A DNA stretch of 18,805 nucleotides, taken from UHGV virus genome UHGV-0261633; one strand, 5' to 3'. Source of the stretch: a virus. Below are positions 1,728 through 8,860 of this stretch, piece after piece. The stretch's first letter is position 1, and each line of letters begins with the position of its first letter. The notes under the pieces are model-generated. The model did not search any database, was not told the DNA's origin, and saw only the letters and a program-made list of their open reading frames with translations. Position numbers and translations under genes: made by a program.

Positions 1728-1803
1728 TGGAGAATCCGAAGGGACTCGAACCCTTATAAACCTGTTTTGCAGACAGGCACATAGCCATTTCTGTCACGGA
1801 TTC
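1728..1803 (-). tRNA. tRNA-Cys (anticodon GCA)
   Basis: Hand fold: encoded CCA (tgg on + at 1728-1730), acceptor gaatccg/cggattc perfect, T-arm aaggg-actcgaa-ccctt, anticodon loop in tRNA sense CUGCAAA. Confidence 0.8.
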
Positions 1804-1807
1804 AAAT

Positions 1808-1900
1808 TGGAGGAAGATACCAGACTTGAACTGGTACACCGATTTCTCAGCTACTGGCAGTTTAGCAAACTGCTCCCTTACCTTTTAGGGTTAATCTTCC
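1808..1900 (-). tRNA. tRNA-Ser (anticodon GCU), type II
   Basis: Encoded CCA, acceptor ggaagat/atcttcc perfect, T-arm accag-acttgaa-ctggt, long variable arm, anticodon stem gcagt/actgc with loop UUGCUAA. Confidence 0.8.
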
Positions 1901-1902
1901 AT

Positions 1903-2637
1903 TTATTTCTGTAATGCGTTCTTCATTTCTGGTGTTGCAATAGTGTCAATTACACCAGTTTTACAAGCATCATCAAACCAGTCTGGTAAGATACCTGCTA
2001 AGAACCCATTGATATTCGTTTTAAGGTACTCTGCAATAAGGGCAGCTTCTTCTTCAATCATCTGCACAACTTCATCTGCATAAGCTGTAATCTTCGAGAT
2101 ACCTTCATTAATCTTACTAACAGCTTGGTTAGCTAAATCAGAAATAGTATCAAGACCTTTGTCAATAGCGTCTTGTAAGTCACTTAATACATCATTAACA
2201 CCGTCTAGTGCACTGTTAATCATATCAATAGCTTTTTGACCATACTCTGTAGCAACACCCATAATACCACTAAATGGTGTACAGCCAACTTGTTCACCTG
2301 CTGCACCCATAACATTAGAATAACCTTTTGCTACCTGCATACGTGATGAAAACTCATCAATGGACTTTTGACCGTAATCTGTCAGTGTTTTGGTAGTTGA
2401 TGTAGTGCTTGTCAGACTCGTGGTAAAGCTGTTAAGCAGAACTGTTGTAAGTCCAGCAGCAACAAGCTTATCCTTTACTGTAGGGTCTGATACAGAACTA
2501 ATAGAGCTTACAAGTGATGTAGAGGCAGCTACGGTTCCACCGAGAACTGCTGCACCAGTAATAAGGGGGTTAGAAAACCCTTTACCAGTTTTTAAGAGAT
2601 TAAAAATCTCCTTACCTTGTTCTGTCATCTCTTTCAT
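1903..2637 (-). CDS. hypothetical Ser/Thr-rich protein (~244 aa) embedded in the tRNA array
   Basis: ORF track 1903..2700, but the first 21 codons overlap tRNA-Phe and begin at a non-ATG codon; internal ATG at 2635-2637 has an AAGGTG RBS. Low-complexity S/T/A-rich N-terminal half. Confidence 0.55.
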   Translation of the reverse strand: MKEMTEQGKEIFNLLKTGKGFSNPLITGAAVLGGTVAASTSLVSSISSVSDPTVKDKLVAAGLTTVLLNSFTTSLTSTTSTTKTLTDYGQKSIDEFSSRMQVAKGYSNVMGAAGEQVGCTPFSGIMGVATEYGQKAIDMINSALDGVNDVLSDLQDAIDKGLDTISDLANQAVSKINEGISKITAYADEVVQMIEEEAALIAEYLKTNINGFLAGILPDWFDDACKTGVIDTIATPEMKNALQK

Positions 2638-2653
2638 TAAGCACCTTTGAAAT

Positions 2654-2730
2654 TGGTAGTCCAGTGGGATTTGAACCCTCTTCTCATGTTTTTCAGACAC
2701 GCGCTTTAACCATATAAGCTACTTGGACTA
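2654..2730 (-). tRNA. tRNA-Phe (anticodon GAA)
   Basis: Acceptor tagtcca/tggacta perfect, T-loop atttgaa (one mismatch in T-stem), anticodon loop CUGAAAA; 3' CCA encoding ambiguous. Confidence 0.7.
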
Positions 2731-2735
2731 TAAAT

Positions 2736-2811
2736 TGGGGTGACCTACGGGATTTGAACCCGTATAGACCATGTTCACAGCATGGGTCATTACCATTTAT
2801 GATAAGGCCAC
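2736..2811 (-). tRNA. tRNA-His (anticodon GUG)
   Basis: Encoded CCA, acceptor with one G-U, T-arm acggg-atttgaa-cccgt, anticodon stem ccatg/catgg with loop CUGUGAA. Confidence 0.8.
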
Positions 2812-2842
2812 ATTTAAGGACTCTCGTAAGAATCCTTAGAAG

Positions 2843-2918
2843 TGGCAGCGGCATAAGGATTTGAACCTTAATAAGACAGCTTCAGAGACTGCTGCATTGC
2901 CAGTTATGCTATACCGCT
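2843..2918 (-). tRNA. tRNA-Gln (anticodon CUG)
   Basis: Encoded CCA, T-arm taagg-atttgaa-cctta, D-arm gcat-tgccagtt-atgc, anticodon loop CUCUGAA. Confidence 0.75.
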
Positions 2919-2923
2919 AAATT

Positions 2924-3002
2924 TGGTACTCCATATCGGATTCGAACCGATACATAACACAGATTTTAAGTCTGGCCTCTCTGCCAATTGGAGTAATGGA
3001 GC
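2924..3002 (-). tRNA. tRNA with leucine anticodon UAA but type-I length (putative tRNA-Leu)
   Basis: Encoded CCA, discriminator A, acceptor actccat/atggagc (terminal G-U), T-arm atcgg-attcgaa-ccgat, anticodon loop CUUAAAA; about 7-nt variable loop, no long arm. Confidence 0.55.
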
Positions 3003-3004
3003 AT

Positions 3005-3080
3005 TGGCGGGGGATGTTGGAATTGAACCAACTTCTTCGATTTCAAAGACCGAGGTTTTAACCTTGTAAACTAATCCCCT
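3005..3080 (-). tRNA. tRNA-Gln (anticodon UUG)
   Basis: Encoded CCA, T-arm gttgg-aattgaa-ccaac, anticodon loop CUUUGAA. Confidence 0.75.
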
Positions 3081-3088
3081 TTAAATCT

Positions 3089-3646
3089 TTACTTTCTCAG
3101 TGGATGAATAAAGAATGCCAACATAACTCTTTCCCTTGAGAATGCTCTTTCTTCTGGGACAACACTTTTTAGCTTCCATCCAACATAAATTCTCCAGTAG
3201 AATTGTTTACCAAAGACTTTAATTGATGGGATAAAAGCGAATAATCCCCAAGCATTACTGTTCCACATTAGGAGATAACCTGTCTGATTATCTTCAGGGT
3301 CAGAACTTACGTTGATATTGCCTTTCCACTTAGTAACATCTTTTACATCTCTTCCTAACACATGGTAAGAGAAGTTATAAGCTTTGTTTCTCCAGAGCCA
3401 TCCAACTCTCTGCAAATAGACACCAAGCTTACCAATCTTTCTAATCTTAGCCCATCTTTTAACGTGACCTTCATCACCATCAATCGGGTTGTCATATGTC
3501 TCCATCCATCTGAATCCAAAAGGTAAGTGTCCTTTCTTCTCACTGTAAAATGGAACTACAAAAGGTGCTAAGATAACTGCTAAGATTGCTGCCAATGGTT
3601 CTAGCAAAGCTAAGAAAATCCATGAAGCATACTTCAAGTATCTCAT
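3089..3646 (-). CDS. hypothetical membrane protein (185 aa) embedded in the tRNA array
   Basis: ORF track; AGAGG RBS about 9 nt upstream; hydrophobic N-terminal segment IFLALLEPLAAILAVILAPFVVPF, Trp-rich remainder. Confidence 0.6.
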   Translation of the reverse strand: MRYLKYASWIFLALLEPLAAILAVILAPFVVPFYSEKKGHLPFGFRWMETYDNPIDGDEGHVKRWAKIRKIGKLGVYLQRVGWLWRNKAYNFSYHVLGRDVKDVTKWKGNINVSSDPEDNQTGYLLMWNSNAWGLFAFIPSIKVFGKQFYWRIYVGWKLKSVVPEERAFSRERVMLAFFIHPLRK

Positions 3647-3665
3647 TTAAATAGCCTCTTTAAAT

Positions 3666-3741
3666 TGGCGCAGGATAAGGGATTCGAACCCCTATTAACA
3701 GCTTCGTAGACTGTTGCTCTATCCATTTGAACTAATCCTGC
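3666..3741 (-). tRNA. tRNA-Arg (anticodon ACG)
   Basis: Encoded CCA, acceptor gcaggat/atcctgc perfect, T-arm aaggg-attcgaa-cccct, anticodon loop CUACGAA. Confidence 0.8.
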
Positions 3742-3855
3742 TTACCTACAAGAACACCATACAGTTTTTCACAAGAGTTGTTTTTACGCCTGTTTTTGAA
3801 TGACGCTATAAACTTTTTTGCAATTGATTTATTACTCATAGTGTTCTCCTAAAAT

Positions 3856-3933
3856 TGGTGTTCCAAGACGGATTCGAACCGTCACTAGTACAAGGTTTGA
3901 GCTTGCATCCTCTGCCAATTGGGATACTGGAAC
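3856..3933 (-). tRNA. tRNA with leucine anticodon CAA but type-I length (putative tRNA-Leu)
   Basis: Reverse complement GUUCCAG-UA-UCC..GGA-U-GCAAG-CUCAAAC-CUUGU-ACUAGU-GACGG-UUCGAAU-CCGUC-UUGGAAC-A-CCA; 6-nt variable loop, discriminator A. Confidence 0.55.
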
Positions 3934-3934
3934 A

Positions 3935-4009
3935 TGGTACTCACTAAAGGACTTGAACCTTTTTCTTCATCTTGTAAGGGTGATGTTTTACCATATAAAC
4001 TAAGCGAGT
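3935..4009 (-). tRNA. tRNA-Val (anticodon UAC)
   Basis: Encoded CCA, T-arm aaagg-acttgaa-ccttt, anticodon loop CUUACAA. Confidence 0.75.
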
Positions 4010-4011
4010 AT

Positions 4012-4102
4012 GAAAGAGGTCTGAAGTTGTGCCGCTAACTCAACTCCGTGGGATTTGTTACGGTCTTCAGTTGACTCAAAGCGGTCTTTCACTTGACCTC
4101 TA
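4012..4102 (-). ncRNA. tRNA-sized structured element without a canonical T-loop (possible tRNA-like RNA or degenerate tRNA)
   Basis: Outer stem agaggt (4015-4020) / acctct (4096-4101), inner stem ctgaag (4021-4026) / cttcag (4065-4070), internal hairpin ccgt..acgg (4046-4063); no GTTCGAAUC motif in either orientation. Strand not determined from sequence. Confidence 0.3.
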
Positions 4103-4105
4103 AAT

Positions 4106-4181
4106 TGGTGCTCCCACAAGGATTCGAACCCTGATAAGTTACTTACAAGGCAACCGTAATAGCCAATTATACGATAGGAGC
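4106..4181 (-). tRNA. tRNA-Thr (anticodon UGU)
   Basis: Reverse complement GCUCCUA-UC-GUAU-AAUUGGCUA-UUAC-G-GUUGC-CUUGUAA-GUAAC-..-CAGGG-UUCGAAU-CCUUG-UGGGAGC-A-CCA. Confidence 0.8.
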
Positions 4182-4188
4182 ATTAATT

Positions 4189-4263
4189 TGGAGCATCCAG
4201 AGGGAATCGAACCCTCAACCTCAGTTTGGAAGACTGTAATTTTCCCGTTTAAACTATGGATGC
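4189..4263 (-). tRNA. tRNA-Gly (anticodon UCC)
   Basis: Encoded CCA, acceptor gcatcca/tggatgc perfect, T-arm gaggg-aatcgaa-ccctc, anticodon loop CUUCCAA. Confidence 0.8.
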
Positions 4264-4269
4264 ACTAAT

Positions 4270-4345
4270 TGGTGGAGTCACCGAGAATTGAACTCGGTTC
4301 CCAAGTTTGCAAAACTCGAATTTTAACCATATAAACTATGACCCC
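4270..4345 (-). tRNA. tRNA-Ala (anticodon UGC)
   Basis: Encoded CCA, T-arm ccgag-aattgaa-ctcgg, anticodon loop UUUGCAA. Confidence 0.8.
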
Positions 4346-4351
4346 ATTGTT

Positions 4352-4427
4352 TGGTACAGGTGGAGGGAATTGAACCCATCGTCTTACTGATTAAGAGTCA
4401 GCCGCATAACCATTTTGCTACACCTGC
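4352..4427 (-). tRNA. tRNA-Lys (anticodon CUU)
   Basis: Encoded CCA, acceptor with terminal G-U, T-loop aattgaa (T-stem only 3 clean pairs), anticodon loop CUCUUAA; paralogous in outline to the tRNA at 5656-5731. Confidence 0.7.
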
Positions 4428-4434
4428 ATTAATT

Positions 4435-4512
4435 TGGTAGGAGACAAGGGATTCGAACCCTCAAACACCAACTTCTAAGGATGGTAGGTTTACCAATTAC
4501 CGTCAATCTCCC
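4435..4512 (-). tRNA. tRNA with leucine anticodon UAG but type-I length (putative tRNA-Leu)
   Basis: Encoded CCA, discriminator A, acceptor 7 pairs with two G-U, T-arm aaggg-attcgaa-ccctc, anticodon stem CCAUC/GUUGG (one mismatch) with loop CUUAGAA; D-arm poorly paired. Confidence 0.5.
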
Positions 4513-4593
4513 ATTAAATCTTTTTAGAGAACTTCTAAGAACCTAAGCAACAAGGTTCCACAACAAGCTGTAATAACCTTAGAAGCCCTCTAA

Positions 4594-4613
4594 AAAGACC
4601 TAAATAGGTCTTT
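4594..4613. other. AT-rich hairpin in array spacer (weak terminator-like)
   Basis: aaagacc-taaata-ggtcttt flanked by A/T runs; orientation and function unclear. Confidence 0.25.
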
Positions 4614-4767
4614 GCATAGTCTTGTTTAATCCGGTGACTAGAACCTTTGGAGAGCTTGATATTATCTCTTCTCCGTGACACCTACTAGGTGCTTTGACAG
4701 TGTACGACAATACACGAGGGATACCAAAGCAACATCCAAATGAAGCTTGGCTTTAAATCTTATTAGG

Positions 4768-4855
4768 CGGTAAGTAAAGGAGTCGAACCCTCACCGTATC
4801 TCTACAGTGGCAACTGTTTTCAAGACAGTTTGGCTACCATTAGCCGCTACCTACC
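4768..4855 (-). tRNA. tRNA-Ser (anticodon UGA), type II
   Basis: T-arm aaagg-agtcgaa-ccctc, ~20-nt variable region, anticodon stem actgt/acagt with loop CUUGAAA, acceptor ggtaagt/acctacc with one G-U; CCA apparently not encoded. Confidence 0.65.
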
Positions 4856-4868
4856 CCTAATAAGACTT

Positions 4869-4951
4869 TGGCATGGGACGGAGGAGTTGAACCCCTTTGA
4901 AACGGTTTTGGAGGCCGTTGCTCATGCCTTAGAGTCTTAACATCGTCCCAT
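4869..4951 (-). tRNA. tRNA-Trp (anticodon CCA)
   Basis: Encoded CCA, acceptor atgggac/gtcccat perfect, T-arm ggagg-agttgaa-cccct, anticodon loop CUCCAAA; D-region longer than canonical. Confidence 0.6.
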
Positions 4952-5093
4952 ATTATAATTCGAAGCTTACCCTGTTATCTCAACACTGTCAAGCTTCTTC
5001 TCAGATTATTTACATGTTCTGGAAAACATGAGATACAGACCACCTCCCTACAGGAAGACCCGCTAAGGCCGTCTAAGTAATCTGCTAACTATT

Positions 5094-5175
5094 TGGTCGA
5101 GGCGGCAGGACTCGAACCCGCATACTCCACTTACTCGGTTAACGGCGGTTTAGAAGACCGCTGAGATACGCCCCG
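5094..5175 (-). tRNA. tRNA-Arg-like (anticodon UCU) with non-canonical body
   Basis: Encoded CCA, acceptor cgaggcg/cgccccg, T-arm gcagg-actcgaa-cccgc, perfect anticodon arm GCGGU-CUUCUAA-ACCGC; but only 7 nt between acceptor and anticodon stem (no room for a D-arm) and 23 nt between anticodon and T arms. Confidence 0.45.
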
Positions 5176-5423
5176 TAATTATCTTTAAAGACTCTCTTAG
5201 AAAGCCCTTAAAGATGCCCACCTTATTAATCATACCGTGGGCGAGTACGCCAAATTCTTTAATGAGGGATTGGAAGACCTCACTGGTGTTTAGCCTATCA
5301 AGCTACTGCCAGAAAAACATTGTCGTTTGCATTTATTTTAAATTTGCAAAATAGACGCTACGCAACGAAAACTAAGGTTACTATAAAGTAGTCACATCTC
5401 AATGTCAACAACTTTATTGAAAT

Positions 5424-5498
5424 TGGTTGTAGGTGAGGGTATCGAACCCTCTTCTAACGGTTATCAGCCGTTTGCATTACCATTTATGCTAACCCACA
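5424..5498 (-). tRNA. tRNA-Ile (anticodon GAU)
   Basis: Encoded CCA, T-arm gaggg-tatcgaa-ccctc, D-arm gcat-taccattt-atgc, anticodon stem aacgg/ccgtt with loop CUGAUAA. Confidence 0.8.
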
Positions 5499-5500
5499 AT

Positions 5501-5577
5501 TGGAGGTTCAGATGGGAATCGAACCCACATTCATAGGGCTTATGAAACCCCTGCATTACCTTATCTGCGACTGAACC
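5501..5577 (-). tRNA. tRNA-Met (anticodon CAU), elongator-like acceptor
   Basis: Encoded CCA, acceptor ggttcag/ctgaacc perfect, T-arm atggg-aatcgaa-cccac, anticodon stem GGGGU/GCCCU with loop UUCAUAA. Confidence 0.7.
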
Positions 5578-5655
5578 AGAATAAGTACCCTAGTTAGAGA
5601 AACTGTTGAGTGGGTGTTTCCAGCCGCGCAGGTGTTTCTCAGTTAAGGGTGAATT

Positions 5656-5731
5656 TGGTAGAAGTGGAGGGATTCGAACCCATCGCCTGTCAGATTAAAA
5701 GTCTGCCGCATCACCATTCTGCTACACTTCC
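5656..5731 (-). tRNA. tRNA-Lys (anticodon UUU)
   Basis: Encoded CCA, acceptor with terminal G-U, T-loop attcgaa, anticodon loop CUUUUAA. Confidence 0.7.
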
Positions 5732-5736
5732 ATTAA

Positions 5737-5876
5737 ATTATCTTTGTAGATAAGCTACCCAGACTTGCTTAAGGTCTGTAGCGATGTGCCTTTTGGGTTT
5801 AAATCTAGAATTTACCCTTCACCCTTTGTGGTCGCATACTCACAGGTAAGCTTAATAACTTATCTACAAAGATAAT
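5737..5876. repeat. 18-bp perfect inverted repeat flanking a 104-bp ORF-free segment
   Basis: attatctttgtagataag (5737-5754) is the exact reverse complement of cttatctacaaagataat (5859-5876). Confidence 0.85.
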
Positions 5877-5920
5877 TACCAGACCGTTGTTTATCATCTT
5901 AAGTGCTACCATTACACCAA

Positions 5921-5975
5921 CTCGACATCTGCCGAGTGAAGGAATCGAACCTTCGCCTTTTCTTTACCGGAGAAA
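5921..5975 (-). other. tRNA fragment-like element (canonical T-arm plus one hairpin, no matching acceptor 5' strand)
   Basis: T-arm gaagg-aatcgaa-ccttc (5938-5954) and hairpin tttct-ttaccgg-agaaa (5958-5974); no complementary acceptor strand found downstream. Confidence 0.3.
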
Positions 5976-5990
5976 TAGATTGTTTAAGTT

Positions 5991-6018
5991 TTGCTGTAAA
6001 CGGTCTTCTGTAAATTTG
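5991..6018. repeat. 28-bp exact direct repeat, copy 1 (ttgctgtaaacggtcttctgtaaatttg)
   Basis: Identical 28-mer at 6471-6498; degenerate copies at about 6078-6097 and 6638-6658. Confidence 0.85.
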
Positions 6019-6130
6019 TTGAGCCAGACCAAGTTTTAAATTTTCAAAATTAAATTGGCTTGAAATTTCATACATTCTTGCTGTATTTGGTCTTCTGCTC
6101 CTTTAAAGAATACTCGTAAGAACTCTTTAA

Positions 6131-6153
6131 GGGAGGGGCTAAATAGCCCTCTC
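6131..6153. other. GC-rich hairpin gggaggggct-aaat-agccctctc
   Basis: Shares the 15-mer ggggctaaatagccc with a hairpin at 18364-18378. Confidence 0.5.
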
Positions 6154-6158
6154 AAAAT

Positions 6159-6235
6159 TGGCGGCTACGATGAGACTTGAACTCACATCATCTCCCGTGA
6201 CAGGGGAGTATTTTCTCCAGTTAAACTACATAGCC
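6159..6235 (-). tRNA. tRNA-Asp (anticodon GUC)
   Basis: Encoded CCA, T-arm atgag-acttgaa-ctcac, anticodon stem ctccc/gggag perfect with loop CUGUCAC. Confidence 0.8.
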
Positions 6236-6240
6236 TTTAT

Positions 6241-6328
6241 TGGTGTGCCGTGTAGGAGTCGAACCTACCGAGTCTCAATGACAAGGGATTTACAGTCCCC
6301 ACCGCTACCATCTACGGGATAACGACAC
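6241..6328 (-). tRNA. tRNA-Tyr (anticodon GUA), type II
   Basis: Encoded CCA, T-arm gtagg-agtcgaa-cctac, ~15-nt variable region, anticodon loop CUGUAAA. Confidence 0.75.
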
Positions 6329-6336
6329 ATTTAATT

Positions 6337-6413
6337 TGGCGGTTAGTCAGGGATTCGAACCCTGTGCCATTCGCTTAACAGGCGACCGCACATACCTTAT
6401 GTGCTTCCTAACC
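6337..6413 (-). tRNA. tRNA-Asn (anticodon GUU)
   Basis: Encoded CCA, T-arm caggg-attcgaa-ccctg, D-arm gcac-ataccttat-gtgc, anticodon loop CUGUUAA. Confidence 0.75.
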
Positions 6414-6470
6414 ATGTTTAGTATTACCAGACCGTATCTTTCAATTTTTCCGCTAAAAATTTAATAAGTA

Positions 6471-6498
6471 TTGCTGTAAACGGTCTTCTGTAAATTTG
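6471..6498. repeat. 28-bp exact direct repeat, copy 2, abutting the 3' end of a tRNA-Met gene
   Basis: Identical to 5991-6018. Confidence 0.85.
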
Positions 6499-6573
6499 GA
6501 GGCGGGTGCAGGAGTCGAACCTGCCGATACCATGCTAATGAGACATGTGAGACGCCCTTTCTCTATACCCGCA
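6497..6573 (-). tRNA. tRNA-Met (anticodon CAU), possibly initiator-type or tRNA-Ile2
   Basis: Encoded CCA, T-arm gcagg-agtcgaa-cctgc perfect, anticodon stem CAUGU/GCAUG with loop CUCAUUA, D-arm gaga-cgccctt-tctc; position 1-72 appears unpaired. Confidence 0.65.
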
Positions 6574-6664
6574 ATTCTTAATGACCAGACCAAATCTCTT
6601 CTTTGTCCGATTTACCTTCAGATGAATAAGATTAAGTTTGCTGTAATTGGTCTTCTGTCAAAAC

Positions 6665-6742
6665 TGGCGTTCCAGAAGGGATTTGAACCCTCAAATATCC
6701 ACTTTGAAAGAGTGGTGACTTTACCATTTTGTCTACTGGAAC
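6665..6742 (-). tRNA. tRNA-Glu (anticodon UUC)
   Basis: Encoded CCA, acceptor gttccag/ctggaac perfect, T-arm aaggg-atttgaa-ccctc, anticodon stem ccact/agtgg with loop CUUUCAA. Confidence 0.8.
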
Positions 6743-6749
6743 ATTAATT

Positions 6750-6826
6750 TGGTCTCTGTTGGAGGACTTGAACCTCCGGCCTTACCGCCCCAAACGGAAC
6801 GCTCTACCAAGCTGAGCTAAACAGAG
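6750..6826 (-). tRNA. tRNA-Pro (anticodon UGG)
   Basis: Encoded CCA, acceptor ctctgtt/aacagag perfect, T-arm ggagg-acttgaa-cctcc, D-arm gctc-taccaagct-gagc, anticodon loop UUUGGGG. Confidence 0.8.
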
Positions 6827-6991: not shown

Positions 6992-8407
6992 TTACCAGAT
7001 ATAACGGTCAATCATTACTGCTTTGAGCATTACGCTGATTGGGTCAAACTTCTCACCACTAAGCAGAGCTTTTAAAGTGGCTGGAGAGAAACCAGATACC
7101 ATTGCTACACCGTTATCCTTAACAGATACTTCGCAAGTACCATTACGGTTTGCTAAGTACCAGAATACCAGTTGTGGCATCTCATATCCAGCTTTTTTGT
7201 ACTTACTCTGAATTGCTTCAAAGTTTGTACGACCGTTAGCTCCATCAACCTGATTGAACTCCATATCGGAGAAGATGATAAGCTTACTTGGCATATCTTT
7301 CTGAGTCAAGTTGTTTCTTTTACCTGTTTCAAGAATGCGGTCAAAAGCTGCTTGTAAGTTAGTTGAGCCATATTCAACGTGTCGCATCACCTGACGATGA
7401 CGGTTTCGTAAATCACCACTCAGTTCGATGAAGTGAGGGTTTGTCGAATAAACCATCAACTCATTCTTAAAGCAACCTGTATTGCGTTCTGCTACATACA
7501 AGGCAAGTGATACACCAATATCCAGAGCAGTAATGGAGCCAAAATTCACCCAAGACATTGAACTTGATACATCAGACATACACAAGATGTTTTCACCTTC
7601 TGCCATCCAGTTTGGTAGTGCTTTCCACTGCTCATTAGCAACATCTGCATTACCATACTTGACAGATTTAATCACATCGTATGGGTAAACAGCACCAGCG
7701 TTAATCTTAGTCTCACCTTTTGATAAGGACTCGATGTAAGCTTTGTAACGCTCTCCATCTTTACGGTTAAACAGTTTTTGGTAACGTGCAGCAGCAAGTG
7801 AAGGAATCTTACTGTAGTCAATCTTACCAAACTCATTAGCAGAGATTTTTTGCTCAACTGTATCAGATAGTGCAGACAACAGTGTGCGGTACTCTTTCTC
7901 ACTCAAGTTGGCAAACTTGCAGAAACGTTTTACAAACTGCTTATGACGTGGTTTGACTCGTGGTAACCACTTAGCCGCCAAACCTGCTGTTGCAGGGTCT
8001 AGTAATGCTGCTTCTAAATGTTTGAAGGCATCTGTCTCGAAACGAGTACCTACGAAGATTTTGAAGTCATCAAAACGACCAAGTTCTGCAATCTTATCCA
8101 TAATGCGAAGAACCTGTGTAGGCTCTAAAACTTTATCTTCAATTGCTTGAAGCAAAACAGTTCTGAAGGCTTTACGCTCACCCATACCTTCTCGTACATC
8201 TCGCATATGCAGTAAAATACGAACTGCAACATCAACATCCTCACGCAAAGCTTTGTAGAACAGGTCTGGTAAGATTTCTACATTGCTACGGCTTGAACCA
8301 GCAGCTTTGTAAAAGTCTACAAGAGCAGACATTGATGAAGTATGGTTTACAGCACCATTTTCAGTTCGACCTGCATGAAGGTGCGCATGTTTAAATAATT
8401 CGCTCAT
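6992..8407 (-). CDS. von Willebrand factor A (vWA/MIDAS) domain protein, 471 aa, with ~270-aa helical N-terminal domain
   Basis: ORF track; C-terminal half has a DxSxS MIDAS motif (ILCMSDVSSSMS) and a vWA-like hhhhSD motif (KLIIFSDMEFNQ); GAGAG RBS. Domain call is from motif recognition only. Confidence 0.8.
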   Translation of the reverse strand: MSELFKHAHLHAGRTENGAVNHTSSMSALVDFYKAAGSSRSNVEILPDLFYKALREDVDVAVRILLHMRDVREGMGERKAFRTVLLQAIEDKVLEPTQVLRIMDKIAELGRFDDFKIFVGTRFETDAFKHLEAALLDPATAGLAAKWLPRVKPRHKQFVKRFCKFANLSEKEYRTLLSALSDTVEQKISANEFGKIDYSKIPSLAAARYQKLFNRKDGERYKAYIESLSKGETKINAGAVYPYDVIKSVKYGNADVANEQWKALPNWMAEGENILCMSDVSSSMSWVNFGSITALDIGVSLALYVAERNTGCFKNELMVYSTNPHFIELSGDLRNRHRQVMRHVEYGSTNLQAAFDRILETGKRNNLTQKDMPSKLIIFSDMEFNQVDGANGRTNFEAIQSKYKKAGYEMPQLVFWYLANRNGTCEVSVKDNGVAMVSGFSPATLKALLSGEKFDPISVMLKAVMIDRYIW

Positions 8408-8488: not shown

Positions 8489-8860
8489 TTATTTTTTGAG
8501 GGTTGCAACAGCAGAGAACGTTGGTTTGTTGTCTGTCTGAGACTGACCACCATTATCAGGGGTCTTCTTAGTGTCTGCTGCAATCGCTTTCATCTCACCT
8601 GCTGAGTGGGTCATGATAGTTTTACCAGCTTCCATCATCGACTTCAGGTTTACATCGTCAGTCGTCAAACCGAACTCTGCAAGCTTAGCAGCGTCCCTTG
8701 TAACAATCGCTTCAAACAACTTTGCAGCAAACTCAGCAGAATTATCAATGGTCAGTTGAGCTTTTACAAGTGAGCTTTTGTTACGTGAGCCTTTTGGTCT
8801 TCCAGATGGGTTTCCAGACTGGCCTTTTTTAAACTGGCCTTTGTTTGTTCTGTTTTTCAT
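8489..8860 (-). CDS. hypothetical basic protein (123 aa) with N-terminal GQSGNPSGRPKG motif
   Basis: ORF track; AAGAGG RBS 8 nt upstream. Lys/Gly-rich N-terminus; I recall this motif from small phage DNA-binding/terminase-small-subunit-associated proteins, unverified here. Confidence 0.65.
   Translation of the reverse strand: MKNRTNKGQFKKGQSGNPSGRPKGSRNKSSLVKAQLTIDNSAEFAAKLFEAIVTRDAAKLAEFGLTTDDVNLKSMMEAGKTIMTHSAGEMKAIAADTKKTPDNGGQSQTDNKPTFSAVATLKK

Follow-up and report, generated by a model that had tools for sequence, protein, structure and literature searches.

A Felix O1-like phage genome (genus Felixounavirus), represented here by an 18,805-nt stretch of the virus genome UHGV-0261633 (the window), harbored a gene at positions 5094-5175, on the (-) strand, that probably encodes a functional phage tRNA-Arg(UCU) with a circularly permuted central domain (canonical nucleotides 10-48). 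The D-stem and D-loop of this rewired tRNA are predicted to exist, but to be located 3' of the anticodon arm. The 1-kb stretch around the gene shared 96% identity with Salmonella phages DaR-2019b and vB_Si_DR094 and matched 310 phage records. It belongs to a tRNA array (window 1728-6826) in which ARAGORN called 25 tRNAs, all on the (-) strand, and the rewired gene is encoded inside this array on the same strand.

Sequence and layout of the gene

The 82-nt RNA encoded at 5094-5175 (-) reads, part by part, CGGGGCG UAUCUCA GCGGU CUUCUAA ACCGC CGUUAACCGAGUAAGUGGAGUAU GCGGG UUCGAGU CCUGC CGCCUCG A CCA. It displayed a 7-bp acceptor stem (one G-U pair) ending with a discriminator and a 3' CCA, a 5-bp anticodon stem with a 7-nt loop in which U33 and A37 flank the anticodon UCU, and a 5-bp T stem (one G-U pair) carrying a loop of the UUCRAnY type (UUCGAGU). 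Only 7 nt separated the acceptor stem from the anticodon stem, leaving no D-arm hairpin (10-25) between position 9 and the anticodon arm, and 23 nt separated the anticodon arm from the T arm. Compared with the cloverleaf definition, the gene thus departs in the position of the D-arm and agrees in the other sequence and structure features. Its parts, with the canonical positions that they would represent, are as follows.

5094..5175 (-): whole rewired tRNA-Arg(UCU) gene, encoded CCA included (sequence; Rfam 31.7 bits; homologue-built model R1 98.1 bits)
5169..5175 (-): acceptor 5' strand CGGGGCG (1-7), pairing with 5098-5104; 7 of 7 pairs compensated in the sets of 62 and 106 homologues
5167..5168 (-): U8 A9, invariant in 214 of 214 homologues and not part of the retrieval pattern
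5163..5166 (-): U followed by CUC, probably acting as the D-stem 3' strand (22, then 23-25); CUC pairs with GAG at 5134-5136
5162..5162 (-): A, equivalent to 26 as judged from connectivity, bridging the D-stem strand and the anticodon stem
5145..5161 (-): anticodon arm GCGGU-CUUCUAA-ACCGC, with UCU at 5152-5154; 5 of 5 stem pairs covary
5137..5144 (-): spacer CGUUAACC, 8 nt, a bulge before the D-stem 5'-type strand that topologically replaces the start of the variable region
5134..5136 (-): GAG, probably acting as the D-stem 5' strand (10-12); covaries with 5163-5165
5122..5133 (-): UAAGUGGAGUAU, comprising U13, the D-loop equivalent (A14 A15 .. G18 G19 A20) and GUAU, the last U being 48; roles assigned from canonical tRNA
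5105..5121 (-): T arm GCGGG-UUCGAGU-CCUGC, with a canonical UUCGAnU loop and a covarying stem
5098..5104 (-): acceptor 3' strand CGCCUCG, from covariation
5094..5097 (-): discriminator A73 and encoded CCA, from the sequence
5380..5408 (-): strong match to a sigma-70-like promoter, TTGACA-17-TATAGT, at 11 of 12 consensus positions, about 200 nt upstream (consensus match only)

Rfam RF00005 scored the gene at 31.7 bits for a gathering score of 29, the weakest value among the tRNAs of the window, and its alignment reduced 15 D-arm positions to 4 nt and placed a 20-nt insert in the variable region. None of the 25 ARAGORN calls fell at 5094-5175, and the same program made no call at the site in 12 divergent homologues, i.e., 13 of 13 copies were missed including that of the window. 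Other Rfam families in the region (mir-9424, permuted tmRNA and sR35) gave chance-level matches only. A covariance model built from the homologues (R1) gave 98.1 bits for 5094-5175 and at most 31 bits for every canonical tRNA of the window. Judged from its conservation in phages and from this score, the element is far beyond chance, and no second rewired tRNA was found in the window with this model (a single match above 31 bits).

Covariation of the D-stem equivalent and conserved D-loop bases

A set of 214 non-redundant, well-formed homologues was drawn from the matches listed in phage genomes, viral contigs and metagenomes, using a pattern that left the anticodon free and included A20. Two alignments were built, a gapless one of 62 members of the window's class, with its 8-nt spacer (A2), and a model-fitted one of 106 distinct sequences from all classes (A3).

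The linker between the acceptor and anticodon stems covaried with a triplet of the 23-nt segment, GAG in the window. Pair 24:11 (linker position 5 with the middle base of the triplet) was formed in 100% of the 214 homologues (GC 74, UA 69, CG 51, AU 19, UG 1), with a mutual information of 1.83 bits. Pair 25:10 (linker position 6 with the first base of the triplet) was formed in 88.8% (CG 117, GC 60, UA 7, AU 5), C23 (linker position 4) was invariant opposite G, and no other register gave a comparable covariation signal in this set. Covariation between the linker and the first GAG was already visible in 12 divergent copies, where the Vibrio phage has CAC/GUG and the Streptomyces phage CGC/GCG.

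Both alignments displayed the same trend. Within A2, 94.5% of cells were paired (64.6% when shuffled), the covariation score reached 0.765 (0.187 when shuffled, 0 of 500 shuffles reaching the observed value, and 0.09 to 0.15 in slid registers), and the D helix was 100% paired with UA/AU/GC and CG/UA/GC alternatives. The score was 0.934 in A3 (0.225 when shuffled), where pairs 14:46, 15:45 and 16:44 all showed double changes. Over the two alignments, 94.5 to 96.5% of cells were paired and double changes occurred in 18-19 of 20-21 pairs, which is not the pattern of a pseudogene; the acceptor, anticodon and T stems all covaried.

The bases expected of a D-loop directly followed the D-stem equivalent. 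On its 3' side, the homologues carried U-A-A-n-U-G-G-A, matching A14, R15, G18, G19 and A20, then 2-6 nt, then A-U right before the T stem. A14, A15, G18, G19, A20 and the final AU were invariant in A2, and the T-loop UUCGA was invariant or nearly so. The core bases U8, A14, R15, G18, G19, Y48, U54, U55, C56 and A58 were all present and invariant in A2, those from A14 to G19 being 3' of the anticodon arm. Bases C, U, A and A were invariant in the spacer of the 8-nt class. A scan without D-loop constraint retained GGA in 29 of 29 UCU elements among the matches listed.

Since the linker runs toward the anticodon stem and the GAG away from it, the former would be of the 22-25 type and the latter of the 10-13 type. 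Because the block formed by 10-13 and the D-loop follows the block formed by 22-26, the anticodon arm and the spacer, the arrangement would amount to a circular permutation of the central domain. The original prediction, made from the window alone, had described textbook anticodon and T arms with gaps of 7 and 23 nt, which direct reading of the (-) strand confirmed, and had considered the gene rearranged and not a simple pseudogene, in line with the covariation of all four helices. The D-loop-like string that it pointed out in the 23-nt segment is real and key to the structure. Its description of the gene as D-armless has to be revised, as a 3-bp equivalent of the D-stem, supported by covariation, links the 7-nt linker to the 23-nt segment and precedes UAAnUGGA, indicating a D-arm moved and not lost.

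Three other pairings were discarded. The second GAG (in GGAGUAU) was not retained as the partner of the linker CUC, the Vibrio and Streptomyces copies and the covariation of the 214-member set pointing to the first GAG. The CCG/UGG mini-hairpin of the minimum free energy (MFE) fold was broken in many homologues, UGG being invariant and its partners varying freely (e.g., ...AAAAGCG...). Linker base 7 and the last spacer base, considered as a possible fourth pair, were mostly A.C and unpaired in 50 of the 62 members of the window's class, and this pair was omitted from the model.

Distribution in phages

The rewired layout appeared to recur in hundreds of unrelated phages. Queried with just these 82 nt, blastn matched 263 phage records at 82-100% identity, in Felixounavirus, Kolesnikvirus (Erwinia phages), Justusliebigvirus (phi92-like), Mydovirus and other Vequintavirinae, Asteriusvirus and other jumbo phages of 320-375 kb, one Vibrio phage and one Streptomyces phage. 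T5-like Demerecviridae with the element were represented by Klebsiella phage Roth37 and Serratia phage Kamaji. General-pattern scans yielded at least 120 matches in each of three viral-contig scans and in the metagenome scan, and more than 280 distinct element sequences were counted across the pattern scans among the matches listed. Spacer length ranged from 3 to 10 nt across the rewired family, and CCA was encoded in 133 of the 214 homologues.

A pattern specific to the window's type retrieved 54 viral contigs and two of 185,579 species-representative genomes, both on contigs of metagenome-assembled genomes. One of these contigs was examined and is probably of phage origin, because it encodes an endolysin, an HNH endonuclease and members of further phage protein families. 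The element is mostly unannotated in GenBank, with a few copies labelled 'tRNA-OTHER' or 'Undet' and one labelled tRNA-Val(aac).

HNH endonuclease genes, each from one of three families, started 1-42 nt past the 3' end of the element in 21 of 368 loci. Examples from Felix-like, T5-like and metagenomic phages, directly after the rewired tRNA, are found at L500 1246-1644, L006 491-882, L015 484-872 and L160 5183-5731. The idea of a single conserved HNH endonuclease travelling with the gene was rejected, as the genes belong to at least two unrelated families (the Felix-like and T5-like HNH proteins are unrelated) and occur in these 21 loci only; the association is recurrent, not defining. Such neighbours may help explain horizontal spread.

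Nine T5-like contigs of 104-120 kb (L390, L392, L405, L411, L432, L437, L469, L478 and L482) shared another tRNA-like element, ...GCCGUCCUAGUAUAAUUGGUAUUAUCAAGCCGUAACUGGUGGAAGAUGUAGGUUCGAAUCCUACGGUCGGUA, in which the T arm looks normal and two D-loop-like motifs are present; neither the parser for rewired tRNAs nor an obvious cloverleaf could accommodate it.

Anticodons and amino-acid identity

Anticodons were confined to arginine among the 214 homologues drawn from the matches listed (UCU 152, ACG 26, CCU 22, UCG 9, CCG 3, GCG 2), and the loop CUUCUAA was present in 128 of them. Bacterial arginyl-tRNA synthetase (ArgRS) recognizes A20 in the D-loop together with C35 and U36 or G36 in the anticodon. 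The RNA from 5094-5175 carries these elements, as UGG-A20 and the anticodon UCU. These identity elements are attributed to Shimada et al. 2001 in PMC12475279.

When the pattern was changed to exclude A at position 20, 42 of 44 elements among the matches listed were of isoleucine type (UAU 31, GAU 7, CAU 4), the two others being one ACG (Arg) and one UAC (Val). All of these had A as discriminator, and the isoleucine-type members had U or G at position 20. A generic structural scanner applied to 3.8 Mb of fetched loci recovered Arg and Ile anticodons only. Changes of the anticodon thus go along with changes of base 20, which is the expectation for charged molecules. The rewired family is restricted to arginine, with an isoleucine sister group, and the Ile(UAU) form could have arisen from Arg(UCU) by one anticodon change and the replacement of A20 by U20.

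Isoleucine-type loci were found in L380-L499 (e.g., L381, L387, L403, L450), the Val(UAC) element in L491, and a rewired Arg and a rewired Ile together in L363. A lone rewired element with anticodon CUU (Lys) was located at L246:11003-11080 (-), with a slightly different D-loop motif, UAAUAGGUUG. Metagenomic arrays that also hold rewired Arg tRNAs contained ARAGORN calls of tRNA-Ile(UAU) that were unusually long, at 90-95 nt (L185 8593-8686, L211 9282-9372, L176 8243-8337, L246 10655-10744). Three rewired Arg(UCU) members (L214:3055-3129, L217:378-452, L181:12711-12785) had an 8-nt anticodon loop (CCUUCUAU / UCUUCUAC), which may reflect either a stem of 4 bp or an enlarged loop.

Canonical alleles, codon usage and complementarity

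Phages KhF3 and ULIM8 possessed a canonical tRNA-Arg(UCU) of 74-77 nt at exactly this position. Flanks were identical between the canonical and the rewired alleles (…UCUUUAAAGA… upstream and ACCAAAUAGUUAGCAG… downstream), the gene body alone differing. The canonical allele with these flanks was found in about 105 records and the rewired allele, at 95% identity or more, in at least 117, including VpaE1_ev035, VSe11 and DaR-2019b. Very close relatives held different alleles, as in KhF2 and KhF3 or in O157 typing phage 8 and typing phage 1. The canonical tRNA-Arg(UCU) of Enterobacteria phage KhF3 (L002 595-671) and the rewired one share a 7-bp acceptor, a 5-bp anticodon stem, the loop CUUCUAA, a GGUUCGAnUCC T arm, the encoded CCA, the G18 G19 A20 motif and the genomic slot. 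They differ in that the D-stem 5' strand and the D-loop precede the anticodon arm in the canonical tRNA and follow it in the rewired one, where a D-stem 3'-type strand alone comes before. Since the anticodon loop is the same in both alleles, a host factor that acts differently on the two would have to do so through the body of the molecule.

This comparison with related phages and the folding with covariance models, both suggested along with the original prediction, were carried out, giving the canonical allele in relatives and the 31.7 bits of RF00005. The naming of the gene as tRNA-Arg(UCU)-like was upheld by the arginine anticodons of the homologues and by the canonical tRNA-Arg(UCU) that sister phages hold at this locus. 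No cloverleaf of the standard kind emerged under different boundaries, as ARAGORN called none and Rfam needed a D-arm deletion.

Codon usage speaks for a use of the gene in translation. In 16 open reading frames of the window, AGA (41%) and AGG (10%) accounted for 51% of arginine codons, and the sole other arginine tRNA called by ARAGORN in the window was ACG, with no other AGR decoder present. The Felix O1 genome paper had expected a tRNA for the over-used Arg[AGA] and did not find it (PMC3185647). The gene at 5094-5175 is this missed tRNA.

Rewired and canonical arginine tRNAs mostly complemented each other within a phage. One contig with 30 canonical tRNAs held canonical Arg tRNAs for ACG and CCG and rewired ones for UCU and CCU, and another held four rewired Arg tRNAs (UCU, CCU, UCG, ACG) with no canonical Arg in the stretch fetched. 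Among 90 tabulated loci, out of 97 with both kinds of Arg tRNA, an anticodon was shared in 9, compared with 35.5 +/- 3.8 expected by random pairing (permutation test).

In the laboratory-evolved VpaE1_ev035, a tRNA was read as Thr(CGU) at L003 1003-1079, where the window (5501-5577) and other relatives have Met(CAU). A point change in the anticodon is therefore implied.

Weight of the evidence and alternative explanations

Several points weigh against a functional tRNA with a permuted central domain. The evidence for it is entirely comparative, and the L-shaped fold is deduced. The D-stem equivalent has just 3 bp, and 2 in some ACG-type members (25:10 being A.C). Thermodynamic folding does not favour this helix: the proposed structure had an energy of -22.5 kcal/mol, whereas leaving the helix out gave -23.7 and the MFE fold reached -25.3, although the stability of canonical D-stems also draws on tertiary contacts. 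Folding of the single sequence returned the acceptor, anticodon and T helices only and no gain in stability over shuffled sequences (z = 0.04), and RNAalifold did not predict the D helix, thus bringing no independent support. As the search patterns fixed G12, U13, A14, A15, G18, G19, A20 (or not-A20) and AU48, the invariance of these bases is independently backed only by the blast-derived set and by the scan without D-loop constraint. Moreover, 10 of 97 loci held a canonical Arg tRNA of the same anticodon, so that the rewired copy is not always the sole decoder, and counts of loci, taken without phylogenetic de-replication, overstate the number of independent events.

A tRNA-like RNA without decoding role, acting as a decoy or inhibitor of a host tRNA-targeting defence nuclease, a synthetase or a modification enzyme, or as a processing or regulatory element of the array, is an unlikely explanation, and the likeliest of the rivals. 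It would be compatible with a non-canonical topology that ARAGORN rejects in 13 of 13 copies, with the loci where a canonical tRNA of the same anticodon is also present, and with the HNH endonuclease genes often adjoining the element, as in a mobile accessory cassette. Phage tRNAs are also known to interact with tRNA-targeting defences, according to PMC10264068 and PMC11464382. A decoy, however, would need neither a set of arginine anticodons complementing those of the canonical Arg tRNAs (9 overlaps for 35.5 expected), nor a place in the slot of the canonical tRNA-Arg(UCU), nor the joint retention of acceptor stem, discriminator, CCA, U33/A37 and A20. The dominance of AGA (41% of the phage's arginine codons) in a window with no other AGR decoder argues in the same direction.

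We regard as still less probable a truly D-armless tRNA of the mitochondrial type, in which a loop of 7 nt (the linker) would replace the D-arm and the 23 nt would be a long variable loop devoid of structure. Such a molecule would account for the missing hairpin between the acceptor and anticodon stems and for energy-based folds that leave both segments mostly unpaired. It would not account for a helix between these segments that covaries, with 24:11 paired in 100% of homologues through four Watson-Crick types, nor for the maintenance of A14, G18G19, A20 and the full canonical T loop.

Decay of a tRNA-Arg(UCU) into a pseudogene after a local rearrangement is very improbable: the marginal Rfam score (31.7 for 29) and the lack of annotation in most records would fit it, but the conservation pattern effectively refutes it, with 263 phage records from unrelated families and over 280 distinct sequences among the matches listed keeping the element, compensatory changes in every helix and anticodons confined to arginine. 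The probability of an ordinary cloverleaf with wrong boundaries or an intron is negligible, since its one supporting observation, the annotation of the copy in Streptomyces phage Yaboi as tRNA-Val(aac), places AAC in the variable spacer of 3-10 nt with no flanking stem, ARAGORN found no cloverleaf at the window site or in 12 homologues including the Streptomyces copy, and the Rfam alignment requires both a D-arm deletion and a 20-nt insertion.

Proposed structure and mechanism

The functional, centrally permuted tRNA-Arg(UCU) would be organized in the order acceptor 5' strand, U8 A9, 22-25 equivalent, N26, anticodon arm, spacer of 3-10 nt, 10-13 equivalent, D-loop equivalent (A14 A15 n U G18 G19 A20), 2-6 nt ending with A-U48, T arm, acceptor 3' strand and N73 (CCA). 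Its transcription would occur together with the rest of the tRNA array, and RNase P and 3' processing would trim its ends. The D-stem equivalent would stack on the anticodon stem and the relocated D-loop would contact the T loop (G18G19 with U55 C56), giving the usual L shape. The host ArgRS would then charge the tRNA through A20 and C35, allowing it to decode AGA and AGG, codons that are dominant in the genes of this phage and rare in its hosts.

New junctions would connect 9 to 22, the end of the anticodon stem (43/44) to 10, and the end of the D-loop (21) to 48/49. Neighbours in the canonical core include the triples 9:12:23, 45:10:25 and 8:14:21 and the pair 15:48. The permutation could be tolerated because the three junctions would join residues that already touch in this core. 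A tandem duplication of the central domain followed by trimming is a plausible origin. Our leading guess for what the rewired form gains is that it evades some host or phage factor recognizing the normal connectivity of the D-arm; a tRNA-targeting defence would be attractive as this factor in view of recent work on phage tRNAs and such defences, but the idea is speculative.

A wider proposal is made tentatively, and we hold it to be rather doubtful as a whole. The rewired genes would form a core-permuted class of mature, translationally active tRNAs for Arg and Ile (rarely Lys and Val) with the order of D- and anticodon arms swapped, spread horizontally in unrelated phages, sometimes beside HNH homing endonucleases. 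Their persistence would follow from a rewired body that still suits the host synthetase, EF-Tu and the ribosome but goes unnoticed by a host tRNA-targeting defence, or by a phage enzyme removing host tRNAs. The gene at 5094-5175 would be the first recognised example.

Comparison with known non-canonical tRNAs

To our knowledge, the cloverleaf order acceptor, D, anticodon, variable and T has been treated as universal outside organelles. The rewired D-arm topology is apparently new: no description of it was found in the literature, including a review of non-canonical tRNAs (PMC7609411), in a search that covered subscription journals thinly, and absolute priority is not claimed.

D-armless mitochondrial tRNAs, such as metazoan and nematode mitochondrial tRNA-Ser(UCU/GCU), have lost the elbow between D-loop and T-loop (PMC7609411). 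They share with the rewired tRNA a short unpaired connector between the acceptor and anticodon stems, and some have the anticodon UCU. They have lost both D-stem and elbow, are shortened and depend on specialised mitochondrial factors, whereas the rewired tRNA retains a covarying D-stem equivalent, G18G19 and a canonical T loop, and is found in phages of bacteria.

Circularly permuted tRNAs also indicate that the tRNA fold tolerates altered chain connectivity. Pan, Gutell and Uhlenbeck reportedly engineered such tRNAs in 1991, with the 5' and 3' ends moved. In Cyanidioschyzon merolae, as described in PMC3728597, tRNA genes are circularly permuted in nature. There the permutation affects the entire gene, with the 3' half upstream of the 5' half and the acceptor strands internal, and a normal mature tRNA results after processing. 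The acceptor strands of the rewired gene are at its two ends as usual, the internal 10-48 alone appears permuted, and the mature RNA itself would carry the new topology.

Class II tRNAs and allo-tRNAs, whose variable arm is long (PMC5389517), resemble the rewired tRNA by a long segment between the anticodon and T arms (23 nt in the latter). Their variable hairpin is self-contained and their D-arm is normal, while the rewired gene has no upstream D-arm and no conserved self-pairing variable hairpin, its long segment pairing with the 5' linker and holding the D-loop motif. The two-piece (permuted) transfer-messenger RNA (tmRNA; RF04321) is a natural permutation of a tRNA-like domain as well; its match was at chance level (10.1 bits for a threshold of 47), and the rewired gene has neither an mRNA-like part nor two pieces.

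If confirmed, the rewired tRNA would mean that the L-shaped fold can be reached in nature by a second chain topology. It would provide a natural test of the tRNA contacts needed by synthetases, EF-Tu and the ribosome, as well as fresh scaffolds for orthogonal tRNA engineering. Inventories of phage tRNAs appear to be systematically incomplete, with ARAGORN missing 13 of 13 copies and GenBank mostly blank apart from entries such as the single 'tRNA-Val'. The rewired genes also make it testable why phages carry their own AGA/AGG and AUA decoders, and allele swaps are feasible because one locus holds the canonical allele in some close relatives and the rewired one in others.

Other features of the tRNA array

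The 25 canonical tRNAs called by ARAGORN at window 1728-6826 serve 19 amino acids, tRNA-Trp being absent. The array includes two CAU (Met/Ile2-type) genes and paired isoacceptors for Gln, Lys, Leu (three) and Ser. Non-coding spacers of about 240 nt lie on either side of the rewired gene (4855-5094 and 5175-5424), and they seem indel-prone because relatives align there in 2-3 pieces with 92% coverage only. Genes for proteins of unknown function, all on the (-) strand, occur in or beside the array at 1903-2700, 3089-3646, 6992-8407 and 8489-8860. Domains of the array-associated proteins were DUF7217, DUF7338, DUF2828 with DUF7788 (in a protein of 471 aa encoded just upstream of the array) and DUF5681.

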